DNA of 64,000 nt from Bdellovibrionales bacterium (GCA_965205645.1 OZ242172.1:704122-768121); one strand, 5' to 3'. Positions 1,649-41,866 are shown, numbered from the stretch's first letter. The notes: generated by a model from the letters alone, not told the origin. Made by a program: numbers and translations.

Positions 1649-2299
1649 TTAATCAGATAGTTCAAATAAAATAGCATTGAATGTTTGTGTAGTATTATTA
1701 TGCACAGGAATTGTTTTTACTTCTTCTAAGGAGATTATTTTATTTTCAATAGCTATTTTTAATTTTTGTTTTATCCATTCAGGAGGATAAGCACCACTTG
1801 AAATTAAGTTCTGAAAAGTTTTTCTAATATTAGTTATATATAATCCATTTTTCTCTAGTTTTTCTGAAGTATGTAAATTTTCGTAATGCAAAATTAATTG
1901 ATCGTTATTAGCAGTACGCCGGAAATTATCCGGAACAGTAATATGAAGTTTTACTGGACAATCCATTTTAAAATTCATCAAATAAAGTGCAGTTTCATAG
2001 GAAAACGTTCCTACTTGTTCACCGTTACGATTTCTAGCCCAAAGTTGAAAGAGAAAAAAATCTTTTTTTGAATCTGTTTGAATAAAATTAAGTTGATATA
2101 TTCCTCTTTTTACTCGTGACCAGTTTTCTCTTTTTAAATGATAAGAATGATTTCTAGAATCGATACCTGATTCTATTGCCTGTTGGCTAGTGAATAGACC
2201 TGATTGATTCTGAGCAATTTTTAATAAAGGATGATTAACTCTCAAAAATAGTTCCTTATTTGATATAATTATGTATTTTATGTTATATACTATCAACAA
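1649..2299 (-). CDS. AbiEi-like (type IV TA antitoxin-type) DNA-binding domain protein, no AbiEii partner nearby
   Basis: The N-terminal pattern GLFTSQQAIESGIDSRNHSYHLKRENWSRVKRGIYQL resembles the AbiEi_4-type wHTH. Judged by eye only. Confidence 0.45.
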   Translation of the reverse strand: MLIVYNIKYIIISNKELFLRVNHPLLKIAQNQSGLFTSQQAIESGIDSRNHSYHLKRENWSRVKRGIYQLNFIQTDSKKDFFLFQLWARNRNGEQVGTFSYETALYLMNFKMDCPVKLHITVPDNFRRTANNDQLILHYENLHTSEKLEKNGLYITNIRKTFQNLISSGAYPPEWIKQKLKIAIENKIISLEEVKTIPVHNNTTQTFNAILFELSD

Positions 2300-2399
2300 T
2301 AATTATAAAATAACATAATTTTTATGTATTTTATATATTTTTTTCTTGTTTTTTGCAATATATACTGGTAATTTCTATCGAAAAAGAGGGATGTCTATA

Positions 2400-3464
2400 A
2401 TGATAAAAAGCATAAAAATTCAAAATTATAAGCTTTTTAAGTCCTTTGACCTTCAGAATATTCCTCAAATTCTGTTAGTTGGTGGAAAAAATAATAGTGG
2501 AAAAACTAGCATTTTAGAAGCTGCATTTATGTCTTTGGATTGTGTGAATCCCAATATGTTTATCAGGCATCTTGGATGGAGAGGCTTGAATACTATTTCT
2601 AATGATGTAGAATCTTTATTTGGCCCTGTATATCATAATTTTGATTTAAACCAGCCTATAATTATTCAATATACTCTTAATTCAGCACAAAAAAAATTAA
2701 TATACAAGTTTCTGCCATTTGTTACACAACCTATTATCACTCGTAACGGAAGCAGTATTGAAATTAACGAGAAAGTTAGCAGATTTGGGGGGATAGAAAT
2801 TTCTTATTGGCTAGGAAGAGAACAATATCATAAGGCTTTGTTAAAACATGAAATAAAGGGACTTAATTTATCATCTGTGAATCAAGTGCTGAAATACAAT
2901 GAAGGTGTAAAAGCTGTGTTTCTTGCTTCAACTTTTTCAGATCATCAATCGGAAAATGCTCGTAGATATGGCGAGTTGGATAGAATAAATAATACAGCTA
3001 ATATTTTAACTGCATTAAAAATTTTAGAATCCAAACTTAATTCTTTGAGTGTGATACCAATGGGCAATAGATCAATGATATACGGAGATACGGGTCTCGG
3101 AAAAAAAATTCCCTTGGCACTGATGGGTCAAGGGATTAACAAACTTGTATCTATTCTTTTAGCAATTTCCAATGCTAATAATGGAGTTGTTTTTATAGAT
3201 GAGCTTGAAAATGGATTCCATCATTCTGTTCTATCCGATATATGGAAAGTTATTTCACACCATGCTATGTTTAATAATACACAAGTGATAGCTACTACAC
3301 ATAGTAGGGAGCTTATTCTAGGAGCAGTAGCAGGTATACCTGATAGGATTAGAGATAAATTTAAATATATGAGGATAGAAAGAAAAGGAAATGCATTTAA
3401 AACAAAACATTATGATTTTAATACTTTGAGTGCAGCTTTAGATTCTGAGTTAGAAATTCGGTAG
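2400..3464 (+). CDS. ABC/SMC-type AAA ATPase (AAA_15/AAA_21-like, OLD/AriA-like ATPase module)
   Basis: Walker A GGKNNSGKTS, signature-like MGQGINKL, Walker B VVFIDELENGFH, H-loop ATTHS. Start chosen at the ATG at 2400, 10 nt after GAGGG. The longest ORF starts at 2346. Confidence 0.75.
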   Translation: MIKSIKIQNYKLFKSFDLQNIPQILLVGGKNNSGKTSILEAAFMSLDCVNPNMFIRHLGWRGLNTISNDVESLFGPVYHNFDLNQPIIIQYTLNSAQKKLIYKFLPFVTQPIITRNGSSIEINEKVSRFGGIEISYWLGREQYHKALLKHEIKGLNLSSVNQVLKYNEGVKAVFLASTFSDHQSENARRYGELDRINNTANILTALKILESKLNSLSVIPMGNRSMIYGDTGLGKKIPLALMGQGINKLVSILLAISNANNGVVFIDELENGFHHSVLSDIWKVISHHAMFNNTQVIATTHSRELILGAVAGIPDRIRDKFKYMRIERKGNAFKTKHYDFNTLSAALDSELEIR

Positions 3465-3469
3465 ATTTA

Positions 3470-4123
3470 GTGAATCAGAAAAACAGATTTAGCATAAAAA
3501 TTACAGAAACAAAACTCCTTCTTGTAGAAGGAAAGGATGAAGAGTTTTTTTTTAAAACTTTCTTAAAAAAGAAAGAGATTTGTAATATTCAAATTATTTC
3601 TAGTGGTGGAAAAGATAAATTTAAGAACAAATTTCCAGCAATTAAAAACACTCCTGGCTTTGATGAAGTAACTTCATTGGCTGTCATCCATGATGCAGAT
3701 ACAAACGCTCAAGGGGCATTTCAAAGTATTTGTTCTGTATTAAAGAACAATAGCGTGGATTATCCTAAACAAATTTCATCATTTACTACTTCAAATTCCC
3801 TTAGAGTTGGGGTTTTTATTATTCCGGATGGAGGAAATCAAGGAAAGTTAGAATCTTTATGCTTATCTACAGTTGAGTCGGACAGTATTATAGAATGTAT
3901 TGATTCTTTTATGAGTTGTATAAAGCAGCAGTCACAGCTTGATATAAATAGATATAAAGAACCAAAAGATATTCATAAAGCTAGATGTAGGGCATTTCTC
4001 TCAGCTATGGAAGAGGATATTCCATCTTTGGGATTAGCTGCTGAAAAGGGTTATTGGAATTTAGATTCAGATAAATTGAATCCTATGTTGAATTTTTTAC
4101 AGGAATTAAATCGCAAAGAGTAA
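3470..4123 (+). CDS. Small Toprim-like partner protein (DUF4435/DUF3226-like)
   Basis: GTG start 6 nt after the ATPase stop. Contains LLLVEGKDEEFF (conserved Glu) and AVIHDADTN (DxD), the two Toprim acidic motifs, plus IIPDGGNQGKLESL. Confidence 0.55.
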   Translation: MNQKNRFSIKITETKLLLVEGKDEEFFFKTFLKKKEICNIQIISSGGKDKFKNKFPAIKNTPGFDEVTSLAVIHDADTNAQGAFQSICSVLKNNSVDYPKQISSFTTSNSLRVGVFIIPDGGNQGKLESLCLSTVESDSIIECIDSFMSCIKQQSQLDINRYKEPKDIHKARCRAFLSAMEEDIPSLGLAAEKGYWNLDSDKLNPMLNFLQELNRKE

Positions 4124-4148
4124 ATAATATATTAAAAAAAGCACTAAT

Positions 4149-5159
4149 ATGGAAATACCAAAGTTTTTATTATATGGTGAGACTGATCCAAAAACTCAAG
4201 AGAGAATACAGAAAACTCTTCCATGGAGAAGTTGGGATCAAGTCAGTGAAAAGGGAAAAGAAATTGCATTTCAGCAATTGATTAATGAAAATGTATTTCT
4301 ATACAAATCAGATCTTGTAGAAAATACGATAAAACGTTTGAATAATAAATTTTTAAGAAAACTATATGGAAAAAATTTACATTATTGTATGTCAGAATAT
4401 CTTGATGATTATCAAACAGCAGCAATGGGTGATTTTCGTGAAATTTTTACAACAGGAAAATCTGATGTGGTTTTTTATATGTTAAGTATATTTGCTGAAG
4501 GATTTATTAATCAGAATTATTTACGTCAAGCAAAAGAATCAAATAATAATGTAGATAGAAAAGAATATATAGAACAAGCTTTTATTCCATTTAATAAATT
4601 ACAGAACTGTTTGAATCATATTTTTGGACAATTTCATGTCAATCAACAGCTTACTTGGAGTGGTTTTATACCTCGTCAAGATGAAAGAATTTTAGATCAA
4701 ATCTATATTCCTACAATTAAATGTCTTTCCGATCCGAAATGGAGTTTAGTAAATAATGATTTAAGTAATATGTTTCAAGACTATAGAAATGGTAACTATC
4801 GGGACACTATTACTAAAGCTCATAATGTTTTACAAAGATTTCTTCAAATTTTTTTAAACAAGAGAAGTAAAAATGCTAAAGGAGAGTTAGGTAAGTTATT
4901 TTCGGAAGCTAAAAATAAAGGTGTTATATCAAATAATATTTTTATCATGAAAATCATTGAAGGTATTCAGAGCTTTGTATCTTCTGAAAGAGCAACTAAA
5001 AGCACAGCCAAACCTGCATTTAAAAATGTTACATCTGCAGATGCTTTGCTAGTAATGAATGCAGTTATGGTTTTTTTACAATACTGTTTAGAAGCAGATG
5101 CAACTGCATTGAAAGTATCTCCTGCGATTCATAAAGAGAGAGAACGGATGGCCTTTTGA
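4149..5159 (+). CDS. Hypothetical protein, third gene of the ATPase/Toprim cassette. Helical C-terminus with weak HEPN/Abi_C-like flavour.
   Basis: 336-aa ORF 25 nt downstream of the Toprim-like gene. YRDTITKAH fits Rx6H only loosely. Its stop codon (5157..5159) lies inside direct repeat B. Confidence 0.4.
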   Translation: MEIPKFLLYGETDPKTQERIQKTLPWRSWDQVSEKGKEIAFQQLINENVFLYKSDLVENTIKRLNNKFLRKLYGKNLHYCMSEYLDDYQTAAMGDFREIFTTGKSDVVFYMLSIFAEGFINQNYLRQAKESNNNVDRKEYIEQAFIPFNKLQNCLNHIFGQFHVNQQLTWSGFIPRQDERILDQIYIPTIKCLSDPKWSLVNNDLSNMFQDYRNGNYRDTITKAHNVLQRFLQIFLNKRSKNAKGELGKLFSEAKNKGVISNNIFIMKIIEGIQSFVSSERATKSTAKPAFKNVTSADALLVMNAVMVFLQYCLEADATALKVSPAIHKERERMAF

Positions 5160-5195
5160 TGCACGTGGTGAAGGCGCCGTTGGTGGTTTCTGATT
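5152..5195 (+). repeat. Direct repeat B (att-like copy of the ggt 3' end)
   Basis: CCTTTTGATGCACGTGGTGAAGGCGCCGTTGGTGGTTTCTGATT has 3 mismatches to copy A by hand alignment. Confidence 0.85.
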
Positions 5196-5264
5196 GTTTA
5201 TAGTTGTCTATTTAGTATTATTAAAAAATAGATTTGCGGTGGATGTATATTGTACAAACAGAAA

Positions 5265-6413
5265 TTACTTGATATTTTTCAGCCAGTCAGCAGCTGGCCA
5301 GATATGACATCCTGAGGTATGTAGCCTTTGTCGGCTACAAGATCTAACTAGCTGTATTTTTTTTACAGGATCAGGTATATCTTTAGTAAATAAATCAAAA
5401 TGAGATGTGAGTTTTTCATCTTTCCATTTAGTCTCTATCATTTGAAATGGCTTATTGTCTTTTGTGATTAAGAAATCTATTTCTTTTTTATCTTTATTTT
5501 TTAAGTAATAAAGTTGTCTTTTTTCTCCATAGCAGTCTTCTTTAAAGTGGTTATTTTTTAGTAAGGCGCAGGCAACAAGGTTTTCGAATCGCGCGCCTTT
5601 ATCTGAAACTTGAGCTATATCGTAAAAATAATACTTAGGCTGTTTGCGGATAGATTTTCTGATGTTTTTATAATAGGGTTGGATTTTAAAAATAAAATAA
5701 AATCCTTCTAATAGGTTCAGCATTTTTTTCACTGTTTTACCATCGCATTGTAGGATTTTTGATAAATTTTCGTATTGAATAGCGCTACCAACGGATGTTT
5801 TTAGTAACTCTAATAAGGTTTCTAATTGAGAAATTCTTTGGTATTTATCTAGCTCCAGCATATCTTCTTTTAGAATGGCTGAAGTGTGCGTGTTTGCCCA
5901 TCTTCTATAAAACTGCTTTGATCCTTTAAGATATGGTTCTGGAAATCCTCCAATTTCTAGCAGTCGGGTGAGTATTTGCTCTGGGTCTGCTTTTTTATGT
6001 ATTTGGCAAATTTCTTTTACGTCTAAAGGATGTAGGCGAAAAGGGAAAAAGCAGCCAGCTAAGGAATCTCCTGTTCTTTTATAGGCTTCAAGTCTGGCGC
6101 TACCTGTTACTATAATACCTTGTTTAAGTTCTGTTTTTTCATATAAAGCTTTTAGCCATTGTTTCCAGTTTTTTTTAATATGTAGTTCATCAAAAACTAG
6201 GTACTTGCAATAAGGATTCCATTCTTGTCGTTCTACCATTAGGCGGTCTTTGGCATCAAAGTAGTTAAAATAATCAAATTTTACTGAGGATGGGTGTAGG
6301 TGTTTTGAAAGCATTGTTTTTCCGGATTGTCGAGGACCGGTTATAATTAAAATCTTTTCTTTTAAATCTTTTTTTAAAAAGGGCTCTAGGTAGCGAGGTT
6401 TGTATTTGTTCAT
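5265..6413 (-). CDS. AAA ATPase of the AAA_14/DUF4143 type
   Basis: Walker A ITGPRQSGKTML and Walker B-like YLVFDELH. A C-terminal EIDFLI...IETKW module is typical of DUF4143 proteins. Paralog at 41867..43030. Confidence 0.75.
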   Translation of the reverse strand: MNKYKPRYLEPFLKKDLKEKILIITGPRQSGKTMLSKHLHPSSVKFDYFNYFDAKDRLMVERQEWNPYCKYLVFDELHIKKNWKQWLKALYEKTELKQGIIVTGSARLEAYKRTGDSLAGCFFPFRLHPLDVKEICQIHKKADPEQILTRLLEIGGFPEPYLKGSKQFYRRWANTHTSAILKEDMLELDKYQRISQLETLLELLKTSVGSAIQYENLSKILQCDGKTVKKMLNLLEGFYFIFKIQPYYKNIRKSIRKQPKYYFYDIAQVSDKGARFENLVACALLKNNHFKEDCYGEKRQLYYLKNKDKKEIDFLITKDNKPFQMIETKWKDEKLTSHFDLFTKDIPDPVKKIQLVRSCSRQRLHTSGCHIWPAADWLKNIK

Positions 6414-6725: not shown

Positions 6726-8003
6726 TTATCTATATATCACATGAGGATGAGATACTGTGCTAGGTGTACTTTTCTCCCAGTCATCTAAATCTACCGCATC
6801 GTCACATTCATGGAATACAAAAAATTGATCTTTATCAGACAATTCCCCCGTACTAGATATATGATCCGGTAATGAATAATATTCACAGTCAGTGCCTTCT
6901 TCTCCTCCGACATCTGGATCTCCGCGGCTGCCATTGGATTCCACAAATTTATTAAATTCTTCTTCTGTATTCCATTCTCTTACAACTAAATGGATACGAT
7001 GTATCACCTCATGCGCATTATCCAGGCATGACCAGGTAAAATACGGATATCCTTTAAATTGTGTGCCTGGGTGATTTGGCAATGGATCTGTTTCATATAG
7101 TTTAGGTAAGTTATCTAAATTAAAATCTTCTATATCTTCATAGTAATTAGCTACGACAAATGAAGGGCCACTGATTCTTAAACTGCCTCTTGTTGGATCT
7201 CCACCATCGTAAAAGCTTTCAATGCTTGGTATTTCATAAGTTTCAATGTGGCCATCTCTTTCCGTACTAGTGACTAGTGTTAGTGGAATTCCTAAATCAT
7301 TTCTAGCGTTCCAGTTAACGCGGCCTAGGCCTCCGAGGCATTGTTCCAGGCTTTCTCCCCAGGAACCATCTGATTGATCTTCTCCTGAAACTGCGTAATC
7401 ACCAATACAACAATTAGCTAAGTCATCATTTCTATCACTTAGATCGTATCCACATAAATTTTCTATTTCAGCAGAGCATGCTCCTCGTCCTGGTCCATCA
7501 GTGCAATATCTATCTTCTGTTTCTGCATTATCTCCAGTACCTATTGTGCGTTCATCTTTATGAATAATTCTCGGTCCATAACCAGCATTTTGATTAAAGT
7601 GCCAGGGTACTTGAAATCCCAGGTAGTCACACATACCAGGCGGCACATTATATTCAATAGGGGTTGGATGTCCCCATAGATCCCCTTCTATTTTTTCTAG
7701 TTGGCAAAATATATCTTCACTGGATTCTTGATCAATCGGGATTTTACAGTCTGTACCAGGCCCTGCATCTAGCTCATACAGTGCATGTTGTAAAAAGCTA
7801 TGTCCTGCATAGTTGTCTCTGGCTAAGCGAATATAAAAGAATCTATCGTTTGGAATAGATCCTTCATTCTCATCCCATGAAGGTAGTTGAGAAAATGAAG
7901 AGAAGTCACTTGATCCAAAAACATTGAGCTTGCTACAACCCATGAAGAAGGATAAAGCCAAGCCTGTTACGTATAATGAAATCAATAGAACTTTCAGACG
8001 CAT
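6726..8003 (-). CDS. Acidic Cys-rich putative lipoprotein, unknown function
   Basis: Signal peptide with lipobox (LSFFMGC). 425-aa intact ORF rich in D/E/C/G. Confidence 0.6.
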   Translation of the reverse strand: MRLKVLLISLYVTGLALSFFMGCSKLNVFGSSDFSSFSQLPSWDENEGSIPNDRFFYIRLARDNYAGHSFLQHALYELDAGPGTDCKIPIDQESSEDIFCQLEKIEGDLWGHPTPIEYNVPPGMCDYLGFQVPWHFNQNAGYGPRIIHKDERTIGTGDNAETEDRYCTDGPGRGACSAEIENLCGYDLSDRNDDLANCCIGDYAVSGEDQSDGSWGESLEQCLGGLGRVNWNARNDLGIPLTLVTSTERDGHIETYEIPSIESFYDGGDPTRGSLRISGPSFVVANYYEDIEDFNLDNLPKLYETDPLPNHPGTQFKGYPYFTWSCLDNAHEVIHRIHLVVREWNTEEEFNKFVESNGSRGDPDVGGEEGTDCEYYSLPDHISSTGELSDKDQFFVFHECDDAVDLDDWEKSTPSTVSHPHVIYR

Positions 8004-8139: not shown

Positions 8140-8505
8140 TTAATGTTTTGTAGATGTTTTTGTTTCAATTGTTTTAAGGCGAGCGGCTCGTCCTTTTTGT
8201 TTTCTTAAGTAAAAAAGCCGTGCTCTGCGTATTTTTGCTTTAGATACTAGCACGACTTTCTCTAAAGCAGGGCTAGCCAGCGGAAATGTACGTTCCACGC
8301 CTACTCCACCAGATATTTTGCGCACTGTGATGGATCGCGAGGATTTTTTCCCTTGAATTTTTAATACAACACCGCTGAATACTTGCACGCGTTCCTTGCT
8401 GCCTTCCCGAAGACGTATGTGGGCATCCACTGTATCTCCAACTTGTGCTGAGTAATCTTGTTTTTTCTTAGATTGATCCAGCGTGAATTTTTCTACGATA
8501 TCCAT
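8140..8505 (-). CDS. rplS: 50S ribosomal protein L19
   Basis: VGDTVDAHIRLREGSKERVQVFSGVVLKIQGKKSSRSITVRKISGGVGVERTFPLASP is canonical L19. Confidence 0.95.
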   Translation of the reverse strand: MDIVEKFTLDQSKKKQDYSAQVGDTVDAHIRLREGSKERVQVFSGVVLKIQGKKSSRSITVRKISGGVGVERTFPLASPALEKVVLVSKAKIRRARLFYLRKQKGRAARLKTIETKTSTKH

Positions 8506-8550
8506 GGCACTTTCCTTATCTATAACTTGTGTACTTTCGTTTAGGTAATA

Positions 8551-8880
8551 TTATTTTAGATGTTGTTTATTTTTATGTATTTGATCTAAATGACGATCTA
8601 ATTGATTTATTTTGTGAATATTAGCATGGGAGGGGTAGGTATACGTTCTTTCTTGTAGTATCTTGTTTTCTATTGCTTCTTCGGTTGAAAAATTGTTGTT
8701 TAATTCTTTCATCCGCTGCGAGTGAATTGGATAATCGAGTGTGTTTTGTTTGTGTATAGCATTATGAACAGCTATTGGATTCAGGAAGGCCATTGAACAC
8801 TTTATATTTGTCAAAGAATTGCTGTAAGCGTAAGATGAAAATAATAATAATAATATATAAAATATCCAAATTTTTAACAT
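8551..8880 (-). CDS. Small secreted protein, family member 1 of 4 between rplS and trmD
   Basis: Signal peptide MLKIWIFYILLLLFSSYAYS. Shares YTYPSHANIHKINQLDRHLDQI with the other members. Confidence 0.6.
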   Translation of the reverse strand: MLKIWIFYILLLLFSSYAYSNSLTNIKCSMAFLNPIAVHNAIHKQNTLDYPIHSQRMKELNNNFSTEEAIENKILQERTYTYPSHANIHKINQLDRHLDQIHKNKQHLK

Positions 8881-9159
8881 AACAATTCCTTTTACTTCAG
8901 AACATTTTTCTTAATAATATCAGATGTTTAAATCCTTAAACCCAAGTAGGTATTAAGTTAAGTGAGGATATTTATCATACGAGTTGTCTTTATGCAACTT
9001 TAAAAAAGGGGTGGTGTAAATATTTACATTGCCAGTGTAAAAAAACAGCTATTTGCCTGGAAGCTCACGTTACTTAAGTACACATGATTGGCAAAATTAT
9101 GACATGGGAGTAGCAGATTCATAGCGCAGTTATTGATATCGTCTATCATTAGTTGTGTA

Positions 9160-9717
9160 TTATTTCATGTAATATTCTTTATATGAATTCATTTGTTGGT
9201 CTAAATGATCGATTTGTTTTTGCAATTTTTGAGATACAAAGAGTGCATGTTCATAGATTGTCTCTTCTAATTTCATTTTTAATTGTGCAATATGAATCAG
9301 CTGATTCAGCTTTGCATTGTATTTTGTGTGTGCAATAAATATTATCTTCGACGTTTCGTTTAATAGCTTCGGATTTTCTGCATGTTCTGTCACATTCTCT
9401 TCCAGCTGCTGGTCATGTTTCTGTTTATCTAGATAAGGCACAATGAGTTCTGTATGAAGAAGATCATTTACTTGATCTATTACATTGGAATATTGTTGAT
9501 TAGTTTCATCTACTTTTTTTGATAATTGTTTTAAGTCTATACCAGCTTCTTCTAGTGGTGTTCTATCTATGCCTTTAAAAGAAAATCGGCATTTTGTCCA
9601 AGAATTGCTATATGCATTCTGTGAAAGTAACAATGCACAAAATATTCCTATTATAGCTATGCTCAAACTCTCACAGCTATAATAGATAGAATGATAACAG
9701 TTTTTCCTACTCTGCAT
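9160..9717 (-). CDS. Secreted coiled-coil-like protein, family member 2
   Basis: Its N-terminus MQSRKNCYHSIYYS... is identical to the 9874 ORF, followed by a signal peptide. Confidence 0.6.
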   Translation of the reverse strand: MQSRKNCYHSIYYSCESLSIAIIGIFCALLLSQNAYSNSWTKCRFSFKGIDRTPLEEAGIDLKQLSKKVDETNQQYSNVIDQVNDLLHTELIVPYLDKQKHDQQLEENVTEHAENPKLLNETSKIIFIAHTKYNAKLNQLIHIAQLKMKLEETIYEHALFVSQKLQKQIDHLDQQMNSYKEYYMK

Positions 9718-9835
9718 GACATTCTCTTTAACAATTAGAGATTCTTTTCATTCATTCAAGCGATCGTACATCACTGAATGGGTACTCTCTTATCATAAGT
9801 GGCATAGTTGTGCAAATTTAAAGAGAGATTAATGT
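9655..9835 (-). repeat. Conserved leader plus 5' CDS segment of the paralog cassette (copy 1)
   Basis: About 180 bp are nearly identical to 10303..10488. The segment includes TTATCATAAGTGGCATAGTTGTGCAAATTTAAAGAGAGATT. Confidence 0.8.
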
Positions 9836-9873
9836 TTTGACTATAATGTTCTTATATTTTTTTTGAAGTTGTT

Positions 9874-10365
9874 TCATCTGTTAAATAGAATCCATAAGTT
9901 ATTTTGATGGATGTGGTTTAAGGTGTTAATTAGTTGTCTTGTTTGTTCGTTGTCTTTTCGATTTGATCTTTTCAGTTCCTGTAGTATGCTTCTTTTCATA
10001 GTTTCTCCTTCAGCTATTATTTGATCCAGTTTGTGATCCCATGGATTTATTTGTTCAGCGTTACTAGGGTATGTAGATTTTAATTTCTGTAGCAGATATG
10101 TTATTTTGTTTCTAAGGACGATAGATCTATCGTGAATGTGTTCTATATTTATTGGCTTTTGTGGTGTGTGAGATGGTTGGATTGCACTCTCTTTTGTTTC
10201 ATCGGTAGGCGCTGGATTGTCAAATGATTGTTGGCATTTATTTTCAGAAGTACCGTAAGTAGGGTGCGCAAATAACAATGCACAAAATATTCCTATTATA
10301 GTCGTTATGCTGAAAATCCTATAGCTATAATAGATAGAATGATAACAGTTTTTCCTACTCTGCAT
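9874..10365 (-). CDS. Secreted protein, family member 3
   Basis: STYPSNAEQINPWDHKLDQIIAEGETMKRSILQELKR...NNLWILFNR parallels the 10543 ORF. Confidence 0.6.
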   Translation of the reverse strand: MQSRKNCYHSIYYSYRIFSITTIIGIFCALLFAHPTYGTSENKCQQSFDNPAPTDETKESAIQPSHTPQKPINIEHIHDRSIVLRNKITYLLQKLKSTYPSNAEQINPWDHKLDQIIAEGETMKRSILQELKRSNRKDNEQTRQLINTLNHIHQNNLWILFNR

Positions 10366-10488
10366 GATGTTCTCTTTAACAATTAGAGATTCTTTTCACT
10401 CATTCATTCAAGCAATCGTGCATCGCTGAATGGGTACTCTCTTATCATAAGTAGCATAGTTGTGCAAATTTAAAGAGAGATTCATGTT
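10303..10488 (-). repeat. Conserved leader plus 5' CDS segment of the paralog cassette (copy 2)
   Basis: See 9655..9835. Degenerate versions of the TTATCATA..TGCAA core are also upstream of the 8551 and 10543 ORFs. Confidence 0.8.
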
Positions 10489-10542
10489 TTTTCTATGACT
10501 CTGAAGAATAAATCAATCTTCTGTTTTTCTTTTTTTGTATAG

Positions 10543-11055
10543 TTACTCAGATGGATTTTTCTTTGATAAGTTAATTTGTTGATCCTGGTATCCTTCCATG
10601 GATACTTTTAACCTGTTAGATAGAATCCATAAGTTATTTTGGTTGATATAATTAAAAATGTAATTTAATTTTACTGTTTGTTGGTTGTTATTTACATTTA
10701 TTCTTTTCAATTCTTGTATTATTGTGGTCATCTGTGTTTTTCCTTCAGCTATTATCTGATGAAGCTTATGATCTAATTGCTCTATTTTTTTAACGTCATT
10801 AGGATGTGTAGATTGTAATTTTTGTAGCAGATGTTCCGCTTCTTCCTTAAGAGCGGCAGATCGGATACTATATTGTTCTATGTTTATTGGCTGTTGCGCC
10901 GTGTGTTCAGTTTGGGCTGCACCTTTTTTTGTTTCATTACTGATAGGTGCTGAATTATTAAATGGTTGCTTGCATTTGTCTCCGGTAAAACCACCAGAAT
11001 CACCGTAAGCAGGATACGCAAATAGCAATACACAAAATATCCATATTATAGTCAT
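10543..11055 (-). CDS. Secreted protein, family member 4
   Basis: Signal peptide MTIIWIFCVLLFAYPAYG. Contains STHPNDVKKIEQLDHKLHQIIAEGKTQMTTIIQELKR...NNLWILSNR. Confidence 0.6.
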   Translation of the reverse strand: MTIIWIFCVLLFAYPAYGDSGGFTGDKCKQPFNNSAPISNETKKGAAQTEHTAQQPINIEQYSIRSAALKEEAEHLLQKLQSTHPNDVKKIEQLDHKLHQIIAEGKTQMTTIIQELKRINVNNNQQTVKLNYIFNYINQNNLWILSNRLKVSMEGYQDQQINLSKKNPSE

Positions 11056-11352
11056 TAGTATTTCCTTTTAAAGATAGTTTTTCTTCCACCGAGACGGTGG
11101 AGCTAGATTGCCATACGGTACTTATCATAAGCTATATAGCTATGCAACCCTGCAACCCTACAAAATAGTTTTTACATTTTATTTGACTGGCTATAAAGAG
11201 ATTAACATAAAAAGAAAATTTTCCTAATACAATGTTAATTTCATCAGTAAAGGCATTTAAATCATTGGTTTATTTGTGTTTGTTAGATTTAAAAAGATTT
11301 TTTAAATATTTTGTCTGAAATTGAGTCATTATCAAGCTGTTTAGCAACTGTC

Positions 11353-12183
11353 TCAATTCTTGGTTAATTTCTTGCCTTTGTCACTGGAAATCCGTTGCAA
11401 GTCAGCACGGCAAAGGCCACAGGCGATTAACTCTTCATCCAATAGCTTTTGCGCATAACTAAGCGCTGCCGGTACCTCTCGCTTAGCAGGACTAGCTACT
11501 AATAAATCTGGTCTTTTTAGTGCGGTTAATAAGACAGATATAAAGTAATGAAATTCTTTAATGTTTTGATGGTGACCGGAAAATAATATTTTTGGTATAC
11601 AATGTCCCTTAATTTCTCTGGGACGGGTCCACTGAGGACATTCTAATAAGCCATGATCTTCAAAGCTTTCATTAGTAGCGGAATATTCATTTCCTAAAGC
11701 TCCTTTAATGAACCGGCAAAGAGAATCTAATATCAATAAAGCAGCTGGTTCCCCTCCAGTGAGTACATAATCTCCCACAGAAATTTCTTCATCCACGAGT
11801 TCTTCAATCACTCGTTGATCGACTCCACCATAGCGTCCGCAAATGATAATACGTTCTTTTTGTTCCTGCTCCGCCCACTGTCTTGCCATTTCATAATTCC
11901 ATTGCTTCCCTTTTGGACTTAAATAATACACTGTTCTTTTTTTTGGTGCTGATTCAATTGCTTGTTTCAAAGGTTCATACTGAAGTACCATTCCATCTCC
12001 ACCACCAAAGGGACTATCATCCACACTCTGATGAATGTTTGTTGCAAAATTTCTAAGTGGAATTAAATTTACTTTTAATAAATTGCGCTGAATAGATCGG
12101 CCTAATATCCCAACATTCAAAGGAGAGTTAAAAAATTCTGGAAAAAGAGTAACGATATGAAATTTTAACATCACACAAACCAT
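11353..12183 (-). CDS. trmD: tRNA (guanine37-N1)-methyltransferase
   Basis: MLKFHIVTLFPEFF, GGGDGMVL, RYGGVDQRV, VLTGGEPAALLILDS. The true start may be the MLKF Met at 12171. Confidence 0.93.
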   Translation of the reverse strand: MVCVMLKFHIVTLFPEFFNSPLNVGILGRSIQRNLLKVNLIPLRNFATNIHQSVDDSPFGGGDGMVLQYEPLKQAIESAPKKRTVYYLSPKGKQWNYEMARQWAEQEQKERIIICGRYGGVDQRVIEELVDEEISVGDYVLTGGEPAALLILDSLCRFIKGALGNEYSATNESFEDHGLLECPQWTRPREIKGHCIPKILFSGHHQNIKEFHYFISVLLTALKRPDLLVASPAKREVPAALSYAQKLLDEELIACGLCRADLQRISSDKGKKLTKN

Positions 12184-16483: not shown

Positions 16484-16990
16484 CAACCCCCCCCTCAAAA
16501 GGGGTAACTTCGCCGCGATTCCTTGCACGCATGTCACAATTTTGCTTATAAAGTTCGTCAAGTAAGTAAGTGTCCGCCCCCCAAAGGGGGTAACTTCGCC
16601 GCGATTCCTTGCACGCATGTCACAATTTTGCTTATAAAGTTCGTCAAGTAAGTAAGTGTCCGCCCCCCAAAGGGGGTAACTTCGCCGCGATTCCTTGCAC
16701 GCATGTCACAATTTTGCTTATAAAGTTCGTCAAGTAAGTAAGTGTCCGCCCCCAAAGGGGGTAACTTCGCCGCGATTCCTTGCACGCATGTCACAATTTT
16801 TCACATAAAGTTTGCCAAGTAAGTAAGTGTCCGCCCCCCAAAGGGGGTAACTTCGCCGCGATTCCTTGCACGCATGTCACAATTTTTCACATAAAGTTTG
16901 CCAAGTAAGTAAGTGTCCGCCCCCCAAAGGGGGTAACTTCGCCGCGATTCTGCTGTACGCATGTCACTCCTTGTAAATCATGTTTATCAG
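16484..16990 (-). repeat. Tandem array of 6 units of the hairpin repeat, period 86 bp (one unit is 85 bp), co-oriented with secG
   Basis: The TGTCCGCC landmark falls at 16571, 16657, 16743, 16828 and 16914. Monomer: GTCCGCCCCCCAAAGGGGGTAACTTCGCCGCGATTCCTTGCACGCATGTCACAATTTTGCTTATAAAGTTCGTCAAGTAAGTAAGT. The last two units switch to a TTTTTCACATAAAGTTTGCCAAG linker. Confidence 0.92.
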
Positions 16991-21531: not shown

Positions 21532-23445
21532 ATGTCTATAAGAATTTTAATCTTGGAAGATGATCAAAATTTAGGAAAAACTCTTAGTAATCTGTTTATG
21601 ACTCAGCATGAAGCAGTTGTACAAGTGACTCATACTGCTGAAGAAGCCGAACATCTCATGTCATTTGAAGCTTTCGATCTGCTTATCGTGGATCTCGTGC
21701 TGCCAAAAGTTAACGGTTTGGATTTTTTAAAAAATATTGTTCAAAAGAAATATTTACATTCTGAATGTGTCGTGTGGTGTATTTCTGCTATTGTAGAAAA
21801 AAATATTATACCTAGAGAAGTGATTAAATATGTGGATAGTTTTTTTAAAAAATCTACATTTAATATGGATCGGATTAATCAGGTTTTTCGTGATACTTTT
21901 TACTCAGCTAAATATAAGAAATATTTTAAATTTTTCTATATGGAATCAAAAAGCAATATATCCTATACCACATGGTTGGATCACTGTAGAATAATAGAAC
22001 CACATCATTTAATGTTTATTTATGTACATTTGTGTAATAACGGTTTTAGTGGAACATTGGAACTCAGTGGTTCAACTGATACTCCATCTAAAATCTTTTT
22101 CAAAGACGGTAAGATATTCCATTTAAAAATGAATCAAATACCATTAGGTCAATTATTAGAGGAACACAACCTTATTTCTTCTGAAGAAATTAAAACAGCA
22201 ATTGAACAAAAAGGAGATATGCCTTTAGGAAGATATCTAGTGAATCAATGTTTAATTTCTCCACATGCGATGCAAGAGATGCTTAAAAAACAATTATCTC
22301 TTGGTTTATCTAAAACTATGCAAAGTAATTCTGTCCATTTACGTTATTTTGATACGCAAATGAAAAAGACTCAGGAAGATAATGGGTATATTAATTTAGA
22401 TGATTTAATGCCATTATTAGATGAGTGGATATTTTCTAAAGTGGGTCTTACCTGGATAAAAGATTTCTTTAAAAAACATCAAGATAGAACATTAAACTAT
22501 TTGGGAAATGATGTCGGAGTTAAATATAATAAAGGAAAGTCTCGGTTATTTGAATCCGTGTTTATGAATCCTATTCAAAAAGAAATATCCATTCAAGAAT
22601 TAATGAATAGTGCTCCCTTTAAGACAGATAGTTATGTACGAGAGATATATTATCGGCTATTGATTAAAAATTGTTGTCTGTCTTTACCAAGTGAAACTGT
22701 CACACATATTAAAGCATCTCGTGATCAATCCATCCTTTATAAAAAATTAACGAATTTTATTAACAAAGCTCAATCTAAAAATTATTTTGAATTGTTTGGC
22801 TTGCCGAAAAATGTTAATCACTCTCAATTGAAAAATAAATATTTTCAATTGATTAAAGCCTGTCATCCAGATTACAGGCAAGGTAATTACCCAGATGATT
22901 TACAGAAATTATATAACGAAAGTTTAGTCATTATTAATCAAGCATATAAAACATTGATCGATCCGGAAAAGCGACAACTTTATATGGAGAAACTATCTTC
23001 TGCAGCACAAAGTGTTTTATTTTCAGTGACTAAAGAATATCGTCAAGCAAAGCGGGAATTAAAAAATGGTGCTTATGAGCAATCTTTTCAGAAATTTGAT
23101 AAGATTTTAAAATCCGATAAAGCTCCTAAAGATTCTATTTTATTTTGGATGTGGGCGGATCTAAAAAAGAATAAAGAGCAATTGAATAAACAAAAACAAA
23201 AAATATTTTCCGATCATTTTCAAAATATATCAATAGAATATCAACAAGAAAATTTCTTTTTTGTTAAGGGATTGTTTATGAAACAGTTAGGAAAGAATAA
23301 AGAAGCAACGGCTTGTTTTAATAAAGCACTGTTAATTGATCCAAGAATGATAGAGGCACGGCAAGAACGTTATTCTTTAAAATTAAATCAACAGACAAAA
23401 TCTAAACAACACAAAAAACGATGGTTCTTTAGAAGTTCTGCTTGA
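21532..23445 (+). CDS. Multidomain protein: response-regulator receiver, DUF4388-like domain, GspE-N/MshEN-like repeats, J-domain, TPR-like tail
   Basis: ILILEDD...LLIVDLVLP (REC). GTLELSGSTDTPSKIFFKDGKIFHL (DUF4388-like). LGQLLEEHNLISSEEI / LGRYLVNQCLISPHAM. YFELFGLP...ACHPDY (J-domain HPD). Confidence 0.7.
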   Translation: MSIRILILEDDQNLGKTLSNLFMTQHEAVVQVTHTAEEAEHLMSFEAFDLLIVDLVLPKVNGLDFLKNIVQKKYLHSECVVWCISAIVEKNIIPREVIKYVDSFFKKSTFNMDRINQVFRDTFYSAKYKKYFKFFYMESKSNISYTTWLDHCRIIEPHHLMFIYVHLCNNGFSGTLELSGSTDTPSKIFFKDGKIFHLKMNQIPLGQLLEEHNLISSEEIKTAIEQKGDMPLGRYLVNQCLISPHAMQEMLKKQLSLGLSKTMQSNSVHLRYFDTQMKKTQEDNGYINLDDLMPLLDEWIFSKVGLTWIKDFFKKHQDRTLNYLGNDVGVKYNKGKSRLFESVFMNPIQKEISIQELMNSAPFKTDSYVREIYYRLLIKNCCLSLPSETVTHIKASRDQSILYKKLTNFINKAQSKNYFELFGLPKNVNHSQLKNKYFQLIKACHPDYRQGNYPDDLQKLYNESLVIINQAYKTLIDPEKRQLYMEKLSSAAQSVLFSVTKEYRQAKRELKNGAYEQSFQKFDKILKSDKAPKDSILFWMWADLKKNKEQLNKQKQKIFSDHFQNISIEYQQENFFFVKGLFMKQLGKNKEATACFNKALLIDPRMIEARQERYSLKLNQQTKSKQHKKRWFFRSSA

Positions 23446-31820: not shown

Positions 31821-33656
31821 TTAAAAAGATATGTTGGTGTTTGGTAATACTGCTTGTGCTTGTTCATGTAGTGTAGGTTTTAATCCTTTAGGAAAAGGGT
31901 TGTGATCTAGTCTTAGCCATTTTAAGGAAGGCATCTTTGTGAAAAAAACCCAATGTGGAATCCATTGAAATTGATTATTATATAAGTACAACTCTGCCAG
32001 TTGAGGAAGATCGGCTGCTTTTGTTGGCAACCAACTGATGGGGTTATTTTGTAATTCTAATTTTTGTAACTTATATAAACCGTTAAAAGCTGCAGCAGAT
32101 ATTTGAGATATAGTCGTATTGTTTAGTGTGAGCCATTCTAGGTTTTGGAGATAGACAAAGCCGTTTTGTGGTAGCCATGGTATTGGGTTGTTATGCAGTT
32201 TCAATATTGTTACAGAATCTAATCTAGCAAACATGTTTTTATGTAGCATTTCTATCAGGTTATTATTTAAGTAAAGCATAAGTAGTAAACGCATATTCTG
32301 GAAACTATGTTGTGGAATTCGTTGGATATAATTATGAGATAGATTCAGAGTTTTTATGGAAGAAATTCCATTGATGCTCCATACCACTGGAATGTGTTTG
32401 ATGTGGTTGTGGTCCAGCTCTATTTTTTGTATAATAGTTAGTCCTTTAAAAGCGTTGTGCACTATTCGTTTGATGAAATTGTGACTCAGTTTTAGCCATT
32501 CTAATGCATTCAAAGAGTTGAATATATTTTTTGGTAGTTTTTCTATTTTATTATTATTTAGCTTAAGTGTTCTTAATTGAGATAAACCATTAAAGCTATT
32601 TGTCAGTAGCGTTTTTATTTTATTGTTGCTTAAATCCAGTATTTTTAAATTTTTTTGATTATAAAAAAGATATTCTGGAATGGATTCAGTTTTATTATTG
32701 CTGGCATCTAACCATTGAAGTTGAGCTAAGGTTGTAAAGATTTGCGTTGGCCATTTTGGTATTTTATTGTCGTTTATATATAACCACTTTAAAGAAGTTA
32801 GAGCTGCGAAAATATTTTCAGCCAGCTTTTCTATTTTGTTATTATACAGATACAGGTCCTGCAGTTTAGTCAGGGATGCAAAGACATTTTTTGGTAAATC
32901 TCTTATTTGATTATTATGTAAATACAGGGTTTGCAATTTGTGTAGTTGATTGAATGCATATTGTGCAATGTGGTTTATTAAATTGTTATGTAAATACAGG
33001 TTATGTAGCTGAACTTGGGGAGAAAAAAGCCCTTGTTGCAGATCTGTTATTTGATTGTGGTTCAAGTAGAGATCCTCTAACAATGAAAGTTTGTTAAAAA
33101 CACCATCTGGCAGATTTGTTTGTATTTGATTATGGTTTAGAGTTAACCATTTTAATTGAATTAAATGATCAAAAATCTTTTCCGGTAAGATTTTTATTTT
33201 ATTGTGATCTAATAACAGGTATTTTAGAGAAAACAGAAAATGAAAATCATCCGATTTTAGTGTTTCAATGTCTTTGTTAGAAAGATCTAATTTAGCTATT
33301 TTTTTTAGTTCAGTTGATGTGACATGTATGCAATTTTTTTTGAGGATTTTTCTCAAAATAGCTTGTCTGACTTGCGGTGTGCGATTGCAGATATTATGAA
33401 ACGTAGGTTTTGCCGCTGGCTCATTATTTAATTGATTGAAGCGATTGAAATGCCGGTCTATTAGACGATCAAATTGGTCATCCGAATCCGAATCCGAATC
33501 CTTATTTTGGCTGAATGTATTTGTTGTCTGATTTGTGTCCGTAGAGAACATGTTCATAGTGGCCCAGCTACTATAAGTATAAAATGCGATAGCACAGGAT
33601 AATATTTTATGAATGGTTTTTATAGTTTGATTTTTTTTAACTGTTTGTGCATTCAT
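31821..33656 (-). CDS. Secreted leucine-rich-repeat protein, about 19 x 24-aa 'typical' LRRs
   Basis: Repeating LxxLxLxxNxIxxLPxxxFxxL units (e.g. LQTLYLHNNQIRDLPKNVFASLTK). N-terminal signal-like region and a DSDSDSDD linker. Confidence 0.85.
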   Translation of the reverse strand: MNAQTVKKNQTIKTIHKILSCAIAFYTYSSWATMNMFSTDTNQTTNTFSQNKDSDSDSDDQFDRLIDRHFNRFNQLNNEPAAKPTFHNICNRTPQVRQAILRKILKKNCIHVTSTELKKIAKLDLSNKDIETLKSDDFHFLFSLKYLLLDHNKIKILPEKIFDHLIQLKWLTLNHNQIQTNLPDGVFNKLSLLEDLYLNHNQITDLQQGLFSPQVQLHNLYLHNNLINHIAQYAFNQLHKLQTLYLHNNQIRDLPKNVFASLTKLQDLYLYNNKIEKLAENIFAALTSLKWLYINDNKIPKWPTQIFTTLAQLQWLDASNNKTESIPEYLFYNQKNLKILDLSNNKIKTLLTNSFNGLSQLRTLKLNNNKIEKLPKNIFNSLNALEWLKLSHNFIKRIVHNAFKGLTIIQKIELDHNHIKHIPVVWSINGISSIKTLNLSHNYIQRIPQHSFQNMRLLLMLYLNNNLIEMLHKNMFARLDSVTILKLHNNPIPWLPQNGFVYLQNLEWLTLNNTTISQISAAAFNGLYKLQKLELQNNPISWLPTKAADLPQLAELYLYNNQFQWIPHWVFFTKMPSLKWLRLDHNPFPKGLKPTLHEQAQAVLPNTNISF

Positions 33657-38152: not shown

Positions 38153-38174
38153 ATGTTCAGTCAAAAATTTAGAA

Positions 38175-41176
<3,002 letters not shown>

Positions 41177-41200
41177 ACTAAATCTATTGATTGTTATAAA

Positions 41201-41247
41201 GCTAAGAATGTTTTGAGTACGGATAATTTTTTTTAAGTATGAGTTAC
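41201..41247 (+). other. 3' half of the 23S rRNA processing stem
   Basis: See 38101..38152. Confidence 0.6.
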
Positions 41248-41276
41248 TTTATTTTTGTTAGTATTTAATTTTGATT

Positions 41277-41393
41277 TGCTGGTGTCTCTAGCGGCGGGGC
41301 CACACCTGTTCCCATCCCGAACACAGAAGTTAAGCCTGCCAGCGGCGATGGTACTATGGGGCTGACCCCATGGGAGAGTAGCACGATGCCAGC
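41277..41393 (+). rRNA. rrf: 5S ribosomal RNA
   Basis: CCACACCTGTTCCCATCCCGAACACAGAAGTTAAGC...CCCATGGGAGAGTAGCACGATGCCAGC, followed by a T-run. Confidence 0.95.
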
Positions 41394-41866
41394 TTTTTTT
41401 TATTTATTGAACAGTATAAGTACTTATCCCATTACCTTATATACGTATTTGTTTCGTATCCCAGATAAAATAAATTGTAATGTTTTAACCATGTCGTTTT
41501 GCCTGTTTCTCGGGACAAGGAGAAAAAACGAGCGGTGAGAAAGACGAAATAAACGCGTAAACATAGACGTCAATTTGACTGGCTTATTGACATTATGTCG
41601 AACAATATTCCTGATCATAGGTCACAGCAATCATCATGCAGCAGCTTTTTGCCTGTAAAATTTTCCTTGTATACCTGGTTACAATTTTTATCTTATGTTT
41701 AAGTTATTTTTCACAAAAGGTACATATGGATTAAATAAGTTTGGTGAAGATCCTTTAAAGTGTTACATTGTCCAGTAAAATAAATATTTGGAAGTATTAA
41801 AAATAAAATTAATTTTTTTAATTGTTTCTTCATTTACCTTCTCAGCATTCTTTTTAGCATGTTCTG

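Follow-up and report, generated by a model that had tools for sequence, protein, structure and literature searches.

The sequence analysed is a 64,000-nt window from a Bdellovibrionales bacterium (GCA_965205645.1 OZ242172.1:704122-768121), and all coordinates are positions in this window. Within it trmD and rplS, which keep the order and strand that they have in the canonical (ffh-)rpsP-rimM-trmD-rplS cluster, are separated by 2847 bp (8506-11352) containing four minus-strand open reading frames (ORFs), here named A, B, C and D. An initial annotation had described four same-strand genes in 2.85 kb at this site, and they are present as described. From trmD through A, B, C and D to rplS the spacers are 297, 177, 156, 279 and 45 bp, and no canonical terminators were found between the cassettes from trmD to rplS. 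On balance, the locus is probably a tandem array confined to one lineage, whose four genes encode small all-alpha proteins exported by Sec. Each gene appears to stand behind one 5' module, consisting of a promoter-like element, a leader of 68-93 nt with a 5'-proximal hairpin, a signal peptide and the initial mature residues with the motif KCxxxF. Behind this module would lie two unrelated mature domains, a three-helix bundle in A, B and D and long helices in C. Confidence is high in the anatomy and evolutionary history of the array, and falls a little short of even for the function inferred for its proteins and for the dependence of rplS on it.

The four genes and their products

Two related loci were used to judge whether sequence features are conserved. 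One is from a sister strain (L002, ENA ERZ25067264) whose DNA is 91-97% identical, and the other is from a sponge metagenome (L003) whose TrmD is 79% identical. Divergence between strains refers to the window compared with L002, for which synonymous divergence (dS) and the ratio of non-synonymous to synonymous divergence (dN/dS) were calculated by the Nei-Gojobori method. That A to D are real genes is suggested by the dN/dS of 0.46 between A and B, by between-strain values of 0.37 for C and 0.68 for D, by ORFs that are intact in both strains, and by a C-like ORF in L003.

Proteins A and B are paralogous over their full length (54% identity, E 6e-51 by BLASTP), with a dS of 0.62. The similarity of D to A and B is confined to their first ~100 residues (E 9e-12 and 7e-8, respectively), and the similarity of adjacent same-strand genes marks A-B, A-D and B-D as tandem paralogues. 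C is similar to B by BLASTP (E 1e-17) in residues 1-48 only. When a profile of A, B and D was aligned with C (profile-profile, hhalign), only the signal peptide and KC..F aligned, with a probability of 1.6%. All four proteins had initially been regarded as paralogues. This holds for A, B and the truncated D, but by these alignments C shares the 5' module only (promoter, leader, signal peptide and KCxxxF) and is not a mature-domain paralogue. The shared motifs listed earlier divide in the same manner: A, B and D have STHP/STYP/YTYP and LD(H/R)(K/H)L(D/H)QI, IIAEG and NNLWIL are confined to A and B, and C has none of them.

Signal peptides were assigned by rule-based heuristics. The hydrophobic cores (IIWIFCVLLF, IIGIFCALLF, IIGIFCALLL and IWIFYILLLL; mean Kyte-Doolittle 2.9-3.3) are followed by AYG, TYG, AYS and AYS, which place small residues at -3/-1, and no later hydrophobic 19-mer was found. 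Under these simple rules all four proteins have the signal peptidase I (Sec) pattern, as the initial annotation had proposed. Genes A and D start at the hydrophobic core with an AAGGAA Shine-Dalgarno sequence in front. Because the ancestral start ATG is ACG in B, the B ORF begins 20 codons further upstream. Each protein has one Cys after the core, located in KCxxxF 8-10 residues past the predicted cleavage site. A lipoprotein assignment was rejected: this Cys is preceded by GDK, ENK, WTK or NIK in place of a lipobox and lies 14-16 residues past the end of the core.

AlphaFold2 models mature A as ~38 disordered residues followed by a three-helix bundle (pTM, the predicted template modelling score, 0.64). 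Its helices, H40-63, H69-99 and H105-147, have a predicted local distance difference test score (pLDDT) >90 over most of their length. C was modelled with low confidence as two long helices (pLDDT 67). The proteins look exported and helical by these analyses, which agrees with the initial description. A Foldseek search of the PDB with the A-type model gave a best E of 0.16, and the top matches were generic three-helix bundles. Among them, the N-terminal domains of syntaxin (Habc) and Sso1-2 and the mite group 5/21 allergens have a topology like that predicted for A and B. However, TM-scores are 0.4-0.5 and identity is ~12%, a resemblance in fold only with no evidence of SNARE mimicry. A SNARE-like or syntaxin Habc identity was rejected on this E of 0.16 and on a Pfam Longin match (E 0.006) whose 16.9 bits fall below the cut-off of 26.2.

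Apart from the four proteins of this genome (a 1,555,701-bp contig), a profile search of 5.8 billion proteins returned only two, both on a single 17.5-kb ENA contig. When 1.84 billion representatives were searched exhaustively with HMMER, the only additional match, P0127 (E 3.8e-4), proved to be an nSTAND NTPase with helical repeats and was discarded as a spurious, compositional false lead. A C-specific search yielded nothing further, searches of the four proteins against Pfam, NCBIfam and PDB sequences gave nothing above noise, an exact-sequence look-up of protein A found no record, and tblastn within the window found no additional copies. Since the database searches gave no others, the proteins constitute an orphan family with four members per genome; the genome-wide search for further members that had been suggested found none beyond the four. 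The orphan family is new, the arrangement is one already known, and the setting is unusual.

The upstream element and transcription of rplS

Alignment of the window with L002 revealed a bipartite element, TTGCAY-N12-TATGATA, common to eight upstream regions and rigid in its spacing. Exact matches occur four times in 64 kb, once upstream of each gene, vs 0.01 expected. The distance from its last base to the start codon is 68-93 nt in all four genes. The element is also found at the four homologous sites of L002 and once in L003, before the C-like gene, and has no match in the loci L001, L004 and L005. Cores noted before two of the genes had been considered degenerate, and with the motif written in this form the match is exact before all four. 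Read as a sigma-70 promoter the element has a fitting geometry, with TTGCAY as the -35, a 17-bp spacer and a TRTG-extended -10 (TATGaTAAnnn). Sigma-54 and sigma-28 readings were examined by eye and rejected because the GG/GC and TAAA-N15-GCCGATAA spacings misfit.

A conserved block lies directly upstream of rplS in three relatives with adjacent trmD and rplS (L005, L006 and L008). It reads CTTGACATA-N12-GGTGATAGCTCTTAAAYTCTGGAG, followed by 4-6 nt and the ATG, and contains a perfect -35 and a TG-extended -10 (TTGACA-N15-TGATAGC) with the same geometry as the cassette motif. In L006 the block sits within the 3' end of trmD. The likeness suggests that the cassettes and the clade's rplS have promoters of one type. 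The block is absent from the window and L002, with 0 matches at 3 mismatches in 64 kb, and no sigma-70-like sites between the D motif and rplS passed the scan. Because the relatives' promoter block is lost, rplS would now be read from the cassette D promoter or by read-through from further upstream.

Promoter capture is a conceivable but doubtful history for this arrangement. A first cassette would have landed between the rplS promoter and rplS, and tandem duplication would have copied promoter and cassette together. The essential L19 gene would now be the last cistron in a transcription unit for secreted proteins, dependent on cassette promoters. The module would then be a portable recombination unit that can be grafted onto an unrelated coding sequence, giving the C type, and exchanged between neighbours, as from B into C.

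The hairpin shared by the B and C leaders has one compensatory pair among three sequences (window B, window C and L002 C). In an Rfam scan of the window only the 23S and 5S ribosomal RNAs (rRNAs) reached gathering scores, and no family was detected in the leaders. A 17-nt inverted repeat, 82% complementary, brackets the B motif and leader (10363-10379 and 10470-10486; also 9715-9731), and its downstream arm overlaps the Shine-Dalgarno sequence and the ATG. In the minimum-free-energy fold of a read-through transcript both arms pair, with a z-score of only -1.9. In this model, arm pairing could silence B translation from upstream transcripts. Such pairing was not seen in the A, D and L003 leaders.

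Origin of the array and divergence between strains

TrmD homologues place the lineage beside Bdellovibrionales metagenome-assembled genomes (MAGs). The locus of the sister strain has the order symporter, trmD, ORFs of 170, 182, 212 and 109 amino acids, rplS, a lipoprotein-like gene and an AAA_14 gene, as in the window; its B reads past the window's stop to give 182 amino acids. In L003 the symporter and trmD are followed by the motif and by a C-like ORF that runs off the contig. C has orthologues in both, P0005 in L002 (63% identity) and the partial ORF in L003 (52%). In four loci whose TrmD is 59-63% identical trmD and rplS are adjacent, in a symporter-(x)-trmD-rplS arrangement, with gaps of 104 bp (L005), 26 bp (L006), 364 bp (L007, an NCBI 'Bdellovibrionales bacterium' MAG) and 207 bp (L008). 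Since these relatives keep the two genes together, the array is a derived insertion within a sub-lineage, and it predates the split of the window and L002 strains. The synteny comparison that had been recommended was thereby carried out, and it bears on two further claims. Insertion into a ribosomal-protein operon is correct insofar as a conserved trmD-rplS junction was interrupted. However, the gene preceding trmD is a sodium:alanine symporter and not rimM or rpsP, and neither of the latter was found in the window or in the related loci L002-L005. The clade therefore departs from the canonical cluster in having a symporter before trmD, and the window lineage departs further in having 2.85 kb and four genes in between and in having lost the rplS block; the textbook order ffh-rpsP-rimM-trmD-rplS is found in an alphaproteobacterial MAG (TrmD 45%). 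The description of an expanding family was not supported, and the array is instead old and stable in copy number. L002 has the same four genes, the dS of 0.62 between A and B far exceeds that of the strain split (0.04-0.14), D is truncated, and the family has no further members.

A different situation was observed in L004 (TrmD 62% identical), where trmD is not followed by rplS, which lies elsewhere. Directly after trmD, at 8920-10254, are small secreted or lipoprotein-like helical ORFs of 179 and 226 amino acids, and these have no similarity to A, B, C or D. In this clade, genes of this sort may have inserted repeatedly downstream of trmD.

The insert has a lower G+C content than the whole window (31.5% vs 36.1%). 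Because G+C at third codon positions (GC3) in the array genes, 0.26-0.29, is like that of neighbouring genes, the array is not compositionally foreign.

The near-identical 5' region of B and C that had been reported earlier was recovered as a repeat in two parts, 9649-9758 vs 10297-10406 (89%) and 9748-9844 vs 10400-10496 (93%), and it includes both the CATTCA...TGAATG hairpin and the core quoted in the initial annotation. In a four-way alignment of window B, window C, L002 C and L003 C, window C carries B-type states over ~9620-9790, while L002 C and L003 C agree with each other and differ from it. Because window C equals window B where the two other C sequences agree, this segment was interpreted as a B-to-C gene-conversion tract in this genome. 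It spans promoter to signal peptide. The near-identical B/C leader therein appears to be largely a conversion tract limited to this genome. The proposal that each gene has its own conserved control region is accordingly sustained for the motif, which is kept in the sister strain and in the relative with 79% TrmD identity, but not for most of the B/C leader.

The identity profile between window and L002 is a mosaic. DNA identity is ~97% in trmD, falls to 54-82% with indels in the trmD-A spacer, rises to ~99% in A, B and the B leader, and falls again to 60-85% through the C leader, C, the C-D spacer and D. It is 96-98% in the last ~100 nt before rplS, where 48-49/50 positions are identical vs 30-43/50 in the D body, and ~97% in rplS. 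Gene by gene, dS varies as widely (Table 1). The high dS of C, D and the lipoprotein-like gene downstream of rplS points to allele exchange or long-lived alleles and not merely to faster protein evolution. For A and B, a dS close to zero points to a copy shared recently.

Function, alternative readings and surroundings

In the favoured reading the array would have entered the trmD-rplS junction in a single sub-lineage of a small-genome, Bdellovibrionales-related clade. It would have evolved by an old tandem duplication, by conversion of the 5' module from B into C and by turnover at the level of alleles. The four genes may be co-regulated, each from its own promoter, and rplS may be transcribed from the cassette D promoter or by read-through from further upstream. 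Their products may work in the envelope or extracellularly, where the cell meets a host, prey or phage. Such a role would account for the concentration of local variability in C, D and the lipoprotein-like gene.

Several observations weigh against this reading. Protein A lacks a charged n-region, the N-termini of B and C are extended by 20 residues, and in L002 C the window's start ATG is AAG, which bears on the signal-peptide calls. A 5'-proximal hairpin is possible in every leader but is weak, with z-scores of -0.05 to -3.2. The consensus promoter scan does not call the motif, which might serve as an operator instead. It was missed because its -10 hexamer is without the usual final T, and since the relatives' conserved rplS block was also missed, the scan is not decisive either way. 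The high dS of C and D points to recombination or old alleles and, with dN/dS <1, is no proof of positive selection. Finally, the proposed function is assigned by analogy. The frame of L002 C (9998-10639) is open 21 codons further upstream, to an ATG within the leader hairpin, and the C-like frame of L003 is also open upstream of its ATG, behind a strong AAGGAG. The Y/N-rich N-terminal extension of C may therefore be translated, possibly from a non-ATG start.

The N-terminal irregularities would be accommodated if the hydrophobic segments were uncleaved signal anchors. The products would then be helical proteins of the periplasm tethered to the inner membrane, such as envelope scaffolds or regulators, and neither secreted nor at the surface. 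The absence of positive charge before the core of A and the long, atypical extensions of B, C and L002 C favour this, and the invariant Cys 8-10 residues past the cleavage site fits a periplasmic tether equally well. It is nevertheless unlikely, since small -3/-1 residues follow directly on a 10-12 residue core in all copies, which is the pattern of signal peptidase I. A comparably low probability attaches to the view that TTGCAY-N12-TATGATA is a transcription-factor site or an RNA-level element and that the cassettes and rplS are carried on one transcript from upstream of trmD. The lack of canonical terminators between trmD and rplS, the silence of the consensus scan, and the ability of the upstream arm in a read-through B leader to pair with the Shine-Dalgarno sequence and AUG are consistent with it. 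The motif, however, has the spacing of a -35 and an extended -10, the same as in the rplS block of three relatives. It also lies at a fixed 68-93 nt before every start codon, and it is the only part of the spacers conserved across the four cassette types and L003.

Could the array be evolutionary debris, decaying duplicated ORFs tolerated since the region must stay transcribed for rplS? D is truncated and has a dN/dS of 0.68, the stop in B is premature when compared with L002 (unless L002 lost it), L002 C lost its ATG, and the strain differences in A and B are 10 non-synonymous vs 3 synonymous. This view is improbable given that none of the four ORFs is broken in either strain although the C and D proteins diverge by 28-37%, that dN/dS is 0.37-0.46 for C and for A vs B, and that a relative at 79% TrmD identity still has a C-like ORF with this motif. 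Mobility is more improbable still, whether as integron-like cassettes or an island, or with the B and C promoters as invertible phase-variation switches. The cassette-like layout, the 17-nt 82% inverted repeat around the B promoter and leader and a defence island a few kb away would suit it. Yet no integrase, recombinase or tRNA gene was found at the locus when the window proteins were scanned, there are no attC-like inverted repeats at cassette ends, GC3 is as in the neighbours, order and orientation are identical in L002, and the A, D and L003 leaders lack the inverted repeat. Integron cassettes as such were rejected, as the flanks are trmD, rplS, the symporter and the lipoprotein-like ORF and no short-range inverted repeat recurs at the ends.

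The favoured reading, an array of exported proteins behind a common module, resembles two known systems. In the Borrelia erp genes with their upstream homology box, mature parts that differ in origin follow a promoter/operator, a leader peptide and initial mature residues that are all conserved (PMC10016077). As in the Borrelia burgdorferi erp (ospE/ospF/elp) genes, the module of motif, signal peptide and KCxxxF stands on unrelated domains (A/B/D and C), and copies recombine, here by B-to-C conversion; the erp genes are co-expressed. Unlike erp, the array has no sequence similarity to that family, no lipobox and four copies rather than dozens, and it is chromosomal, in tandem between housekeeping genes, whereas erp genes are on cp32 prophages. 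In the lpl genes of S. aureus the evolving unit combines an intergenic region with the 5' part of the ORF that follows (PMC2568036). The array is like lpl (genomic island nuSa-alpha) in consisting of tandem exported paralogues, and the lpl products are thought to be host-interacting and diversified by homologous recombination. The promoter-to-signal-peptide conversion tract and the mosaic strain divergence are further likenesses. The lpl genes, however, encode lipoproteins with a central conserved region and lie in a genomic island, whereas here the 5' module is conserved, the mature parts are helical orphans, and copy number is the same in the two available strains. Judged by homology, lipobox and prophage or island setting, all of them missing, the array belongs to neither family. 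It is a new example of a familiar kind, the fast-evolving secreted-protein cluster, and not a new kind of system.

The array touches no long-standing open question. Its contribution is an orphan family of exported helical proteins in an uncultured lineage with a small genome (1.56 Mb), and this family marks the genes likeliest to face the outside world. The array is also a compact natural case of modular evolution, with one module on unrelated mature domains homogenised by gene conversion; such modularity has so far been described mainly in pathogens, for example Borrelia and Staphylococcus. If rplS has indeed lost its own promoter, an essential ribosomal gene would depend on an accessory array for its transcription, and this dependence would explain why the array is retained.

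Table 1. Features of the trmD-rplS locus and its surroundings, with divergence from the sister strain L002
Feature	Position	Strand	Description	dS	dN/dS
Symporter gene				0.119	0.14
trmD	11353-12183	minus	upstream flank of array; Pfam tRNA_m1G_MT, E 1e-42; 94% identical to L002 orthologue	0.041	0.62
Motif of cassette A	11123-11147	minus	TTGCATAGCTATATAGCTTATGATA; exact match; in the 297-bp trmD-A spacer
Leader hairpin of cassette A	11085-11101	minus	CCACCGUCUCGGUGG; minimum-free-energy fold, z-score only -1.45, weak
Gene A	10543-11055	minus	170 amino acids; predicted signal peptide, ~38 disordered residues with KCxxxF, three-helix bundle; protein 97.6% identical to L002	0	undefined (4 non-synonymous, 0 synonymous)
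Motif of cassette B	10443-10467	minus	exact match
5'-proximal leader hairpin of cassette B	10405-10432	minus	CAUUCAGCGAU...AUUGCUUGAAUG; fold, 11 pairs
Gene B	9874-10365	minus	163 amino acids; full-length paralogue of A	0.031	0.49
B-type 5' module copy before and inside gene C	9649-9844	minus	counterpart 10297-10496; 89-93%
Motif of cassette C	9791-9815	minus	exact match
5'-proximal leader hairpin of cassette C	9753-9780	minus	fold z-score -3.2
Gene C	9160-9717	minus	185 amino acids; B-type signal peptide and KCxxxF, then unrelated helical domain	0.534	0.37
Motif of cassette D	8973-8997	minus	exact match; candidate promoter also serving rplS
Gene D	8551-8880	minus	109 amino acids; truncated A/B-type paralogue, helix 1 and part of helix 2; 72% identical to L002 orthologue	0.242	0.68
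3' end of D and 45-bp D-rplS spacer	8506-8600	minus	highly conserved between strains; without the relatives' rplS promoter block
rplS	8140-8505	minus	downstream flank of array; Pfam Ribosomal_L19, E 1.3e-35	0.136	0.03
Lipoprotein-like orphan gene	6726-8003	minus	425 amino acids; N-terminus ...LALSFFMGCSK; directly downstream of rplS; no family found	0.541	0.28
AAA_14 gene				0.073	0.05
PDC-S01 (AAA_14+DUF4143)	5265-6413		defence island; E 6e-54
PDC-M38B/DUF3226 with OLD-type TOPRIM domain	3470-4123		defence island
AbiLi/PDC-M38A ATPase	2346-3464		defence island; E 1.5e-53
AbiEi	1649-2299		defence island; E 1e-37

The lipoprotein-like orphan shares 77% amino acid identity with its L002 orthologue (425 vs 447 amino acids; dS 0.54), and the genes flanking it are 99% identical between the strains. 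Just beyond rplS and this gene, a defence-gene island occupies 1649-6413 and is partly present in L002. An 86-bp unit (CCCCCCAAAGGGGG...) occurs in 5.5 tandem copies of 96% identity at 16491-16967, and diverged, dispersed copies lie at ~409-562, 735-810 and 1369-1475. In L002 the unit is found at 441-584 and 2882-3314 with a different copy number. It could be an element like a repetitive extragenic palindrome (REP) or a miniature inverted-repeat transposable element (MITE).

The 23S and 5S rRNA genes lie at 38174-41394 without an adjoining 16S gene, and the rRNA operon is split. No transfer RNA genes were found anywhere in the 64-kb window. A protein of 611 amino acids (31821-33656, minus strand) consists nearly entirely of eukaryote-type leucine-rich repeats (LRR_8, E 1.6e-85), a hint of a host-associated lifestyle. 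At 21532-23445 on the plus strand, a fusion protein combines a response-regulator receiver with DUF4388 and a DnaJ domain.

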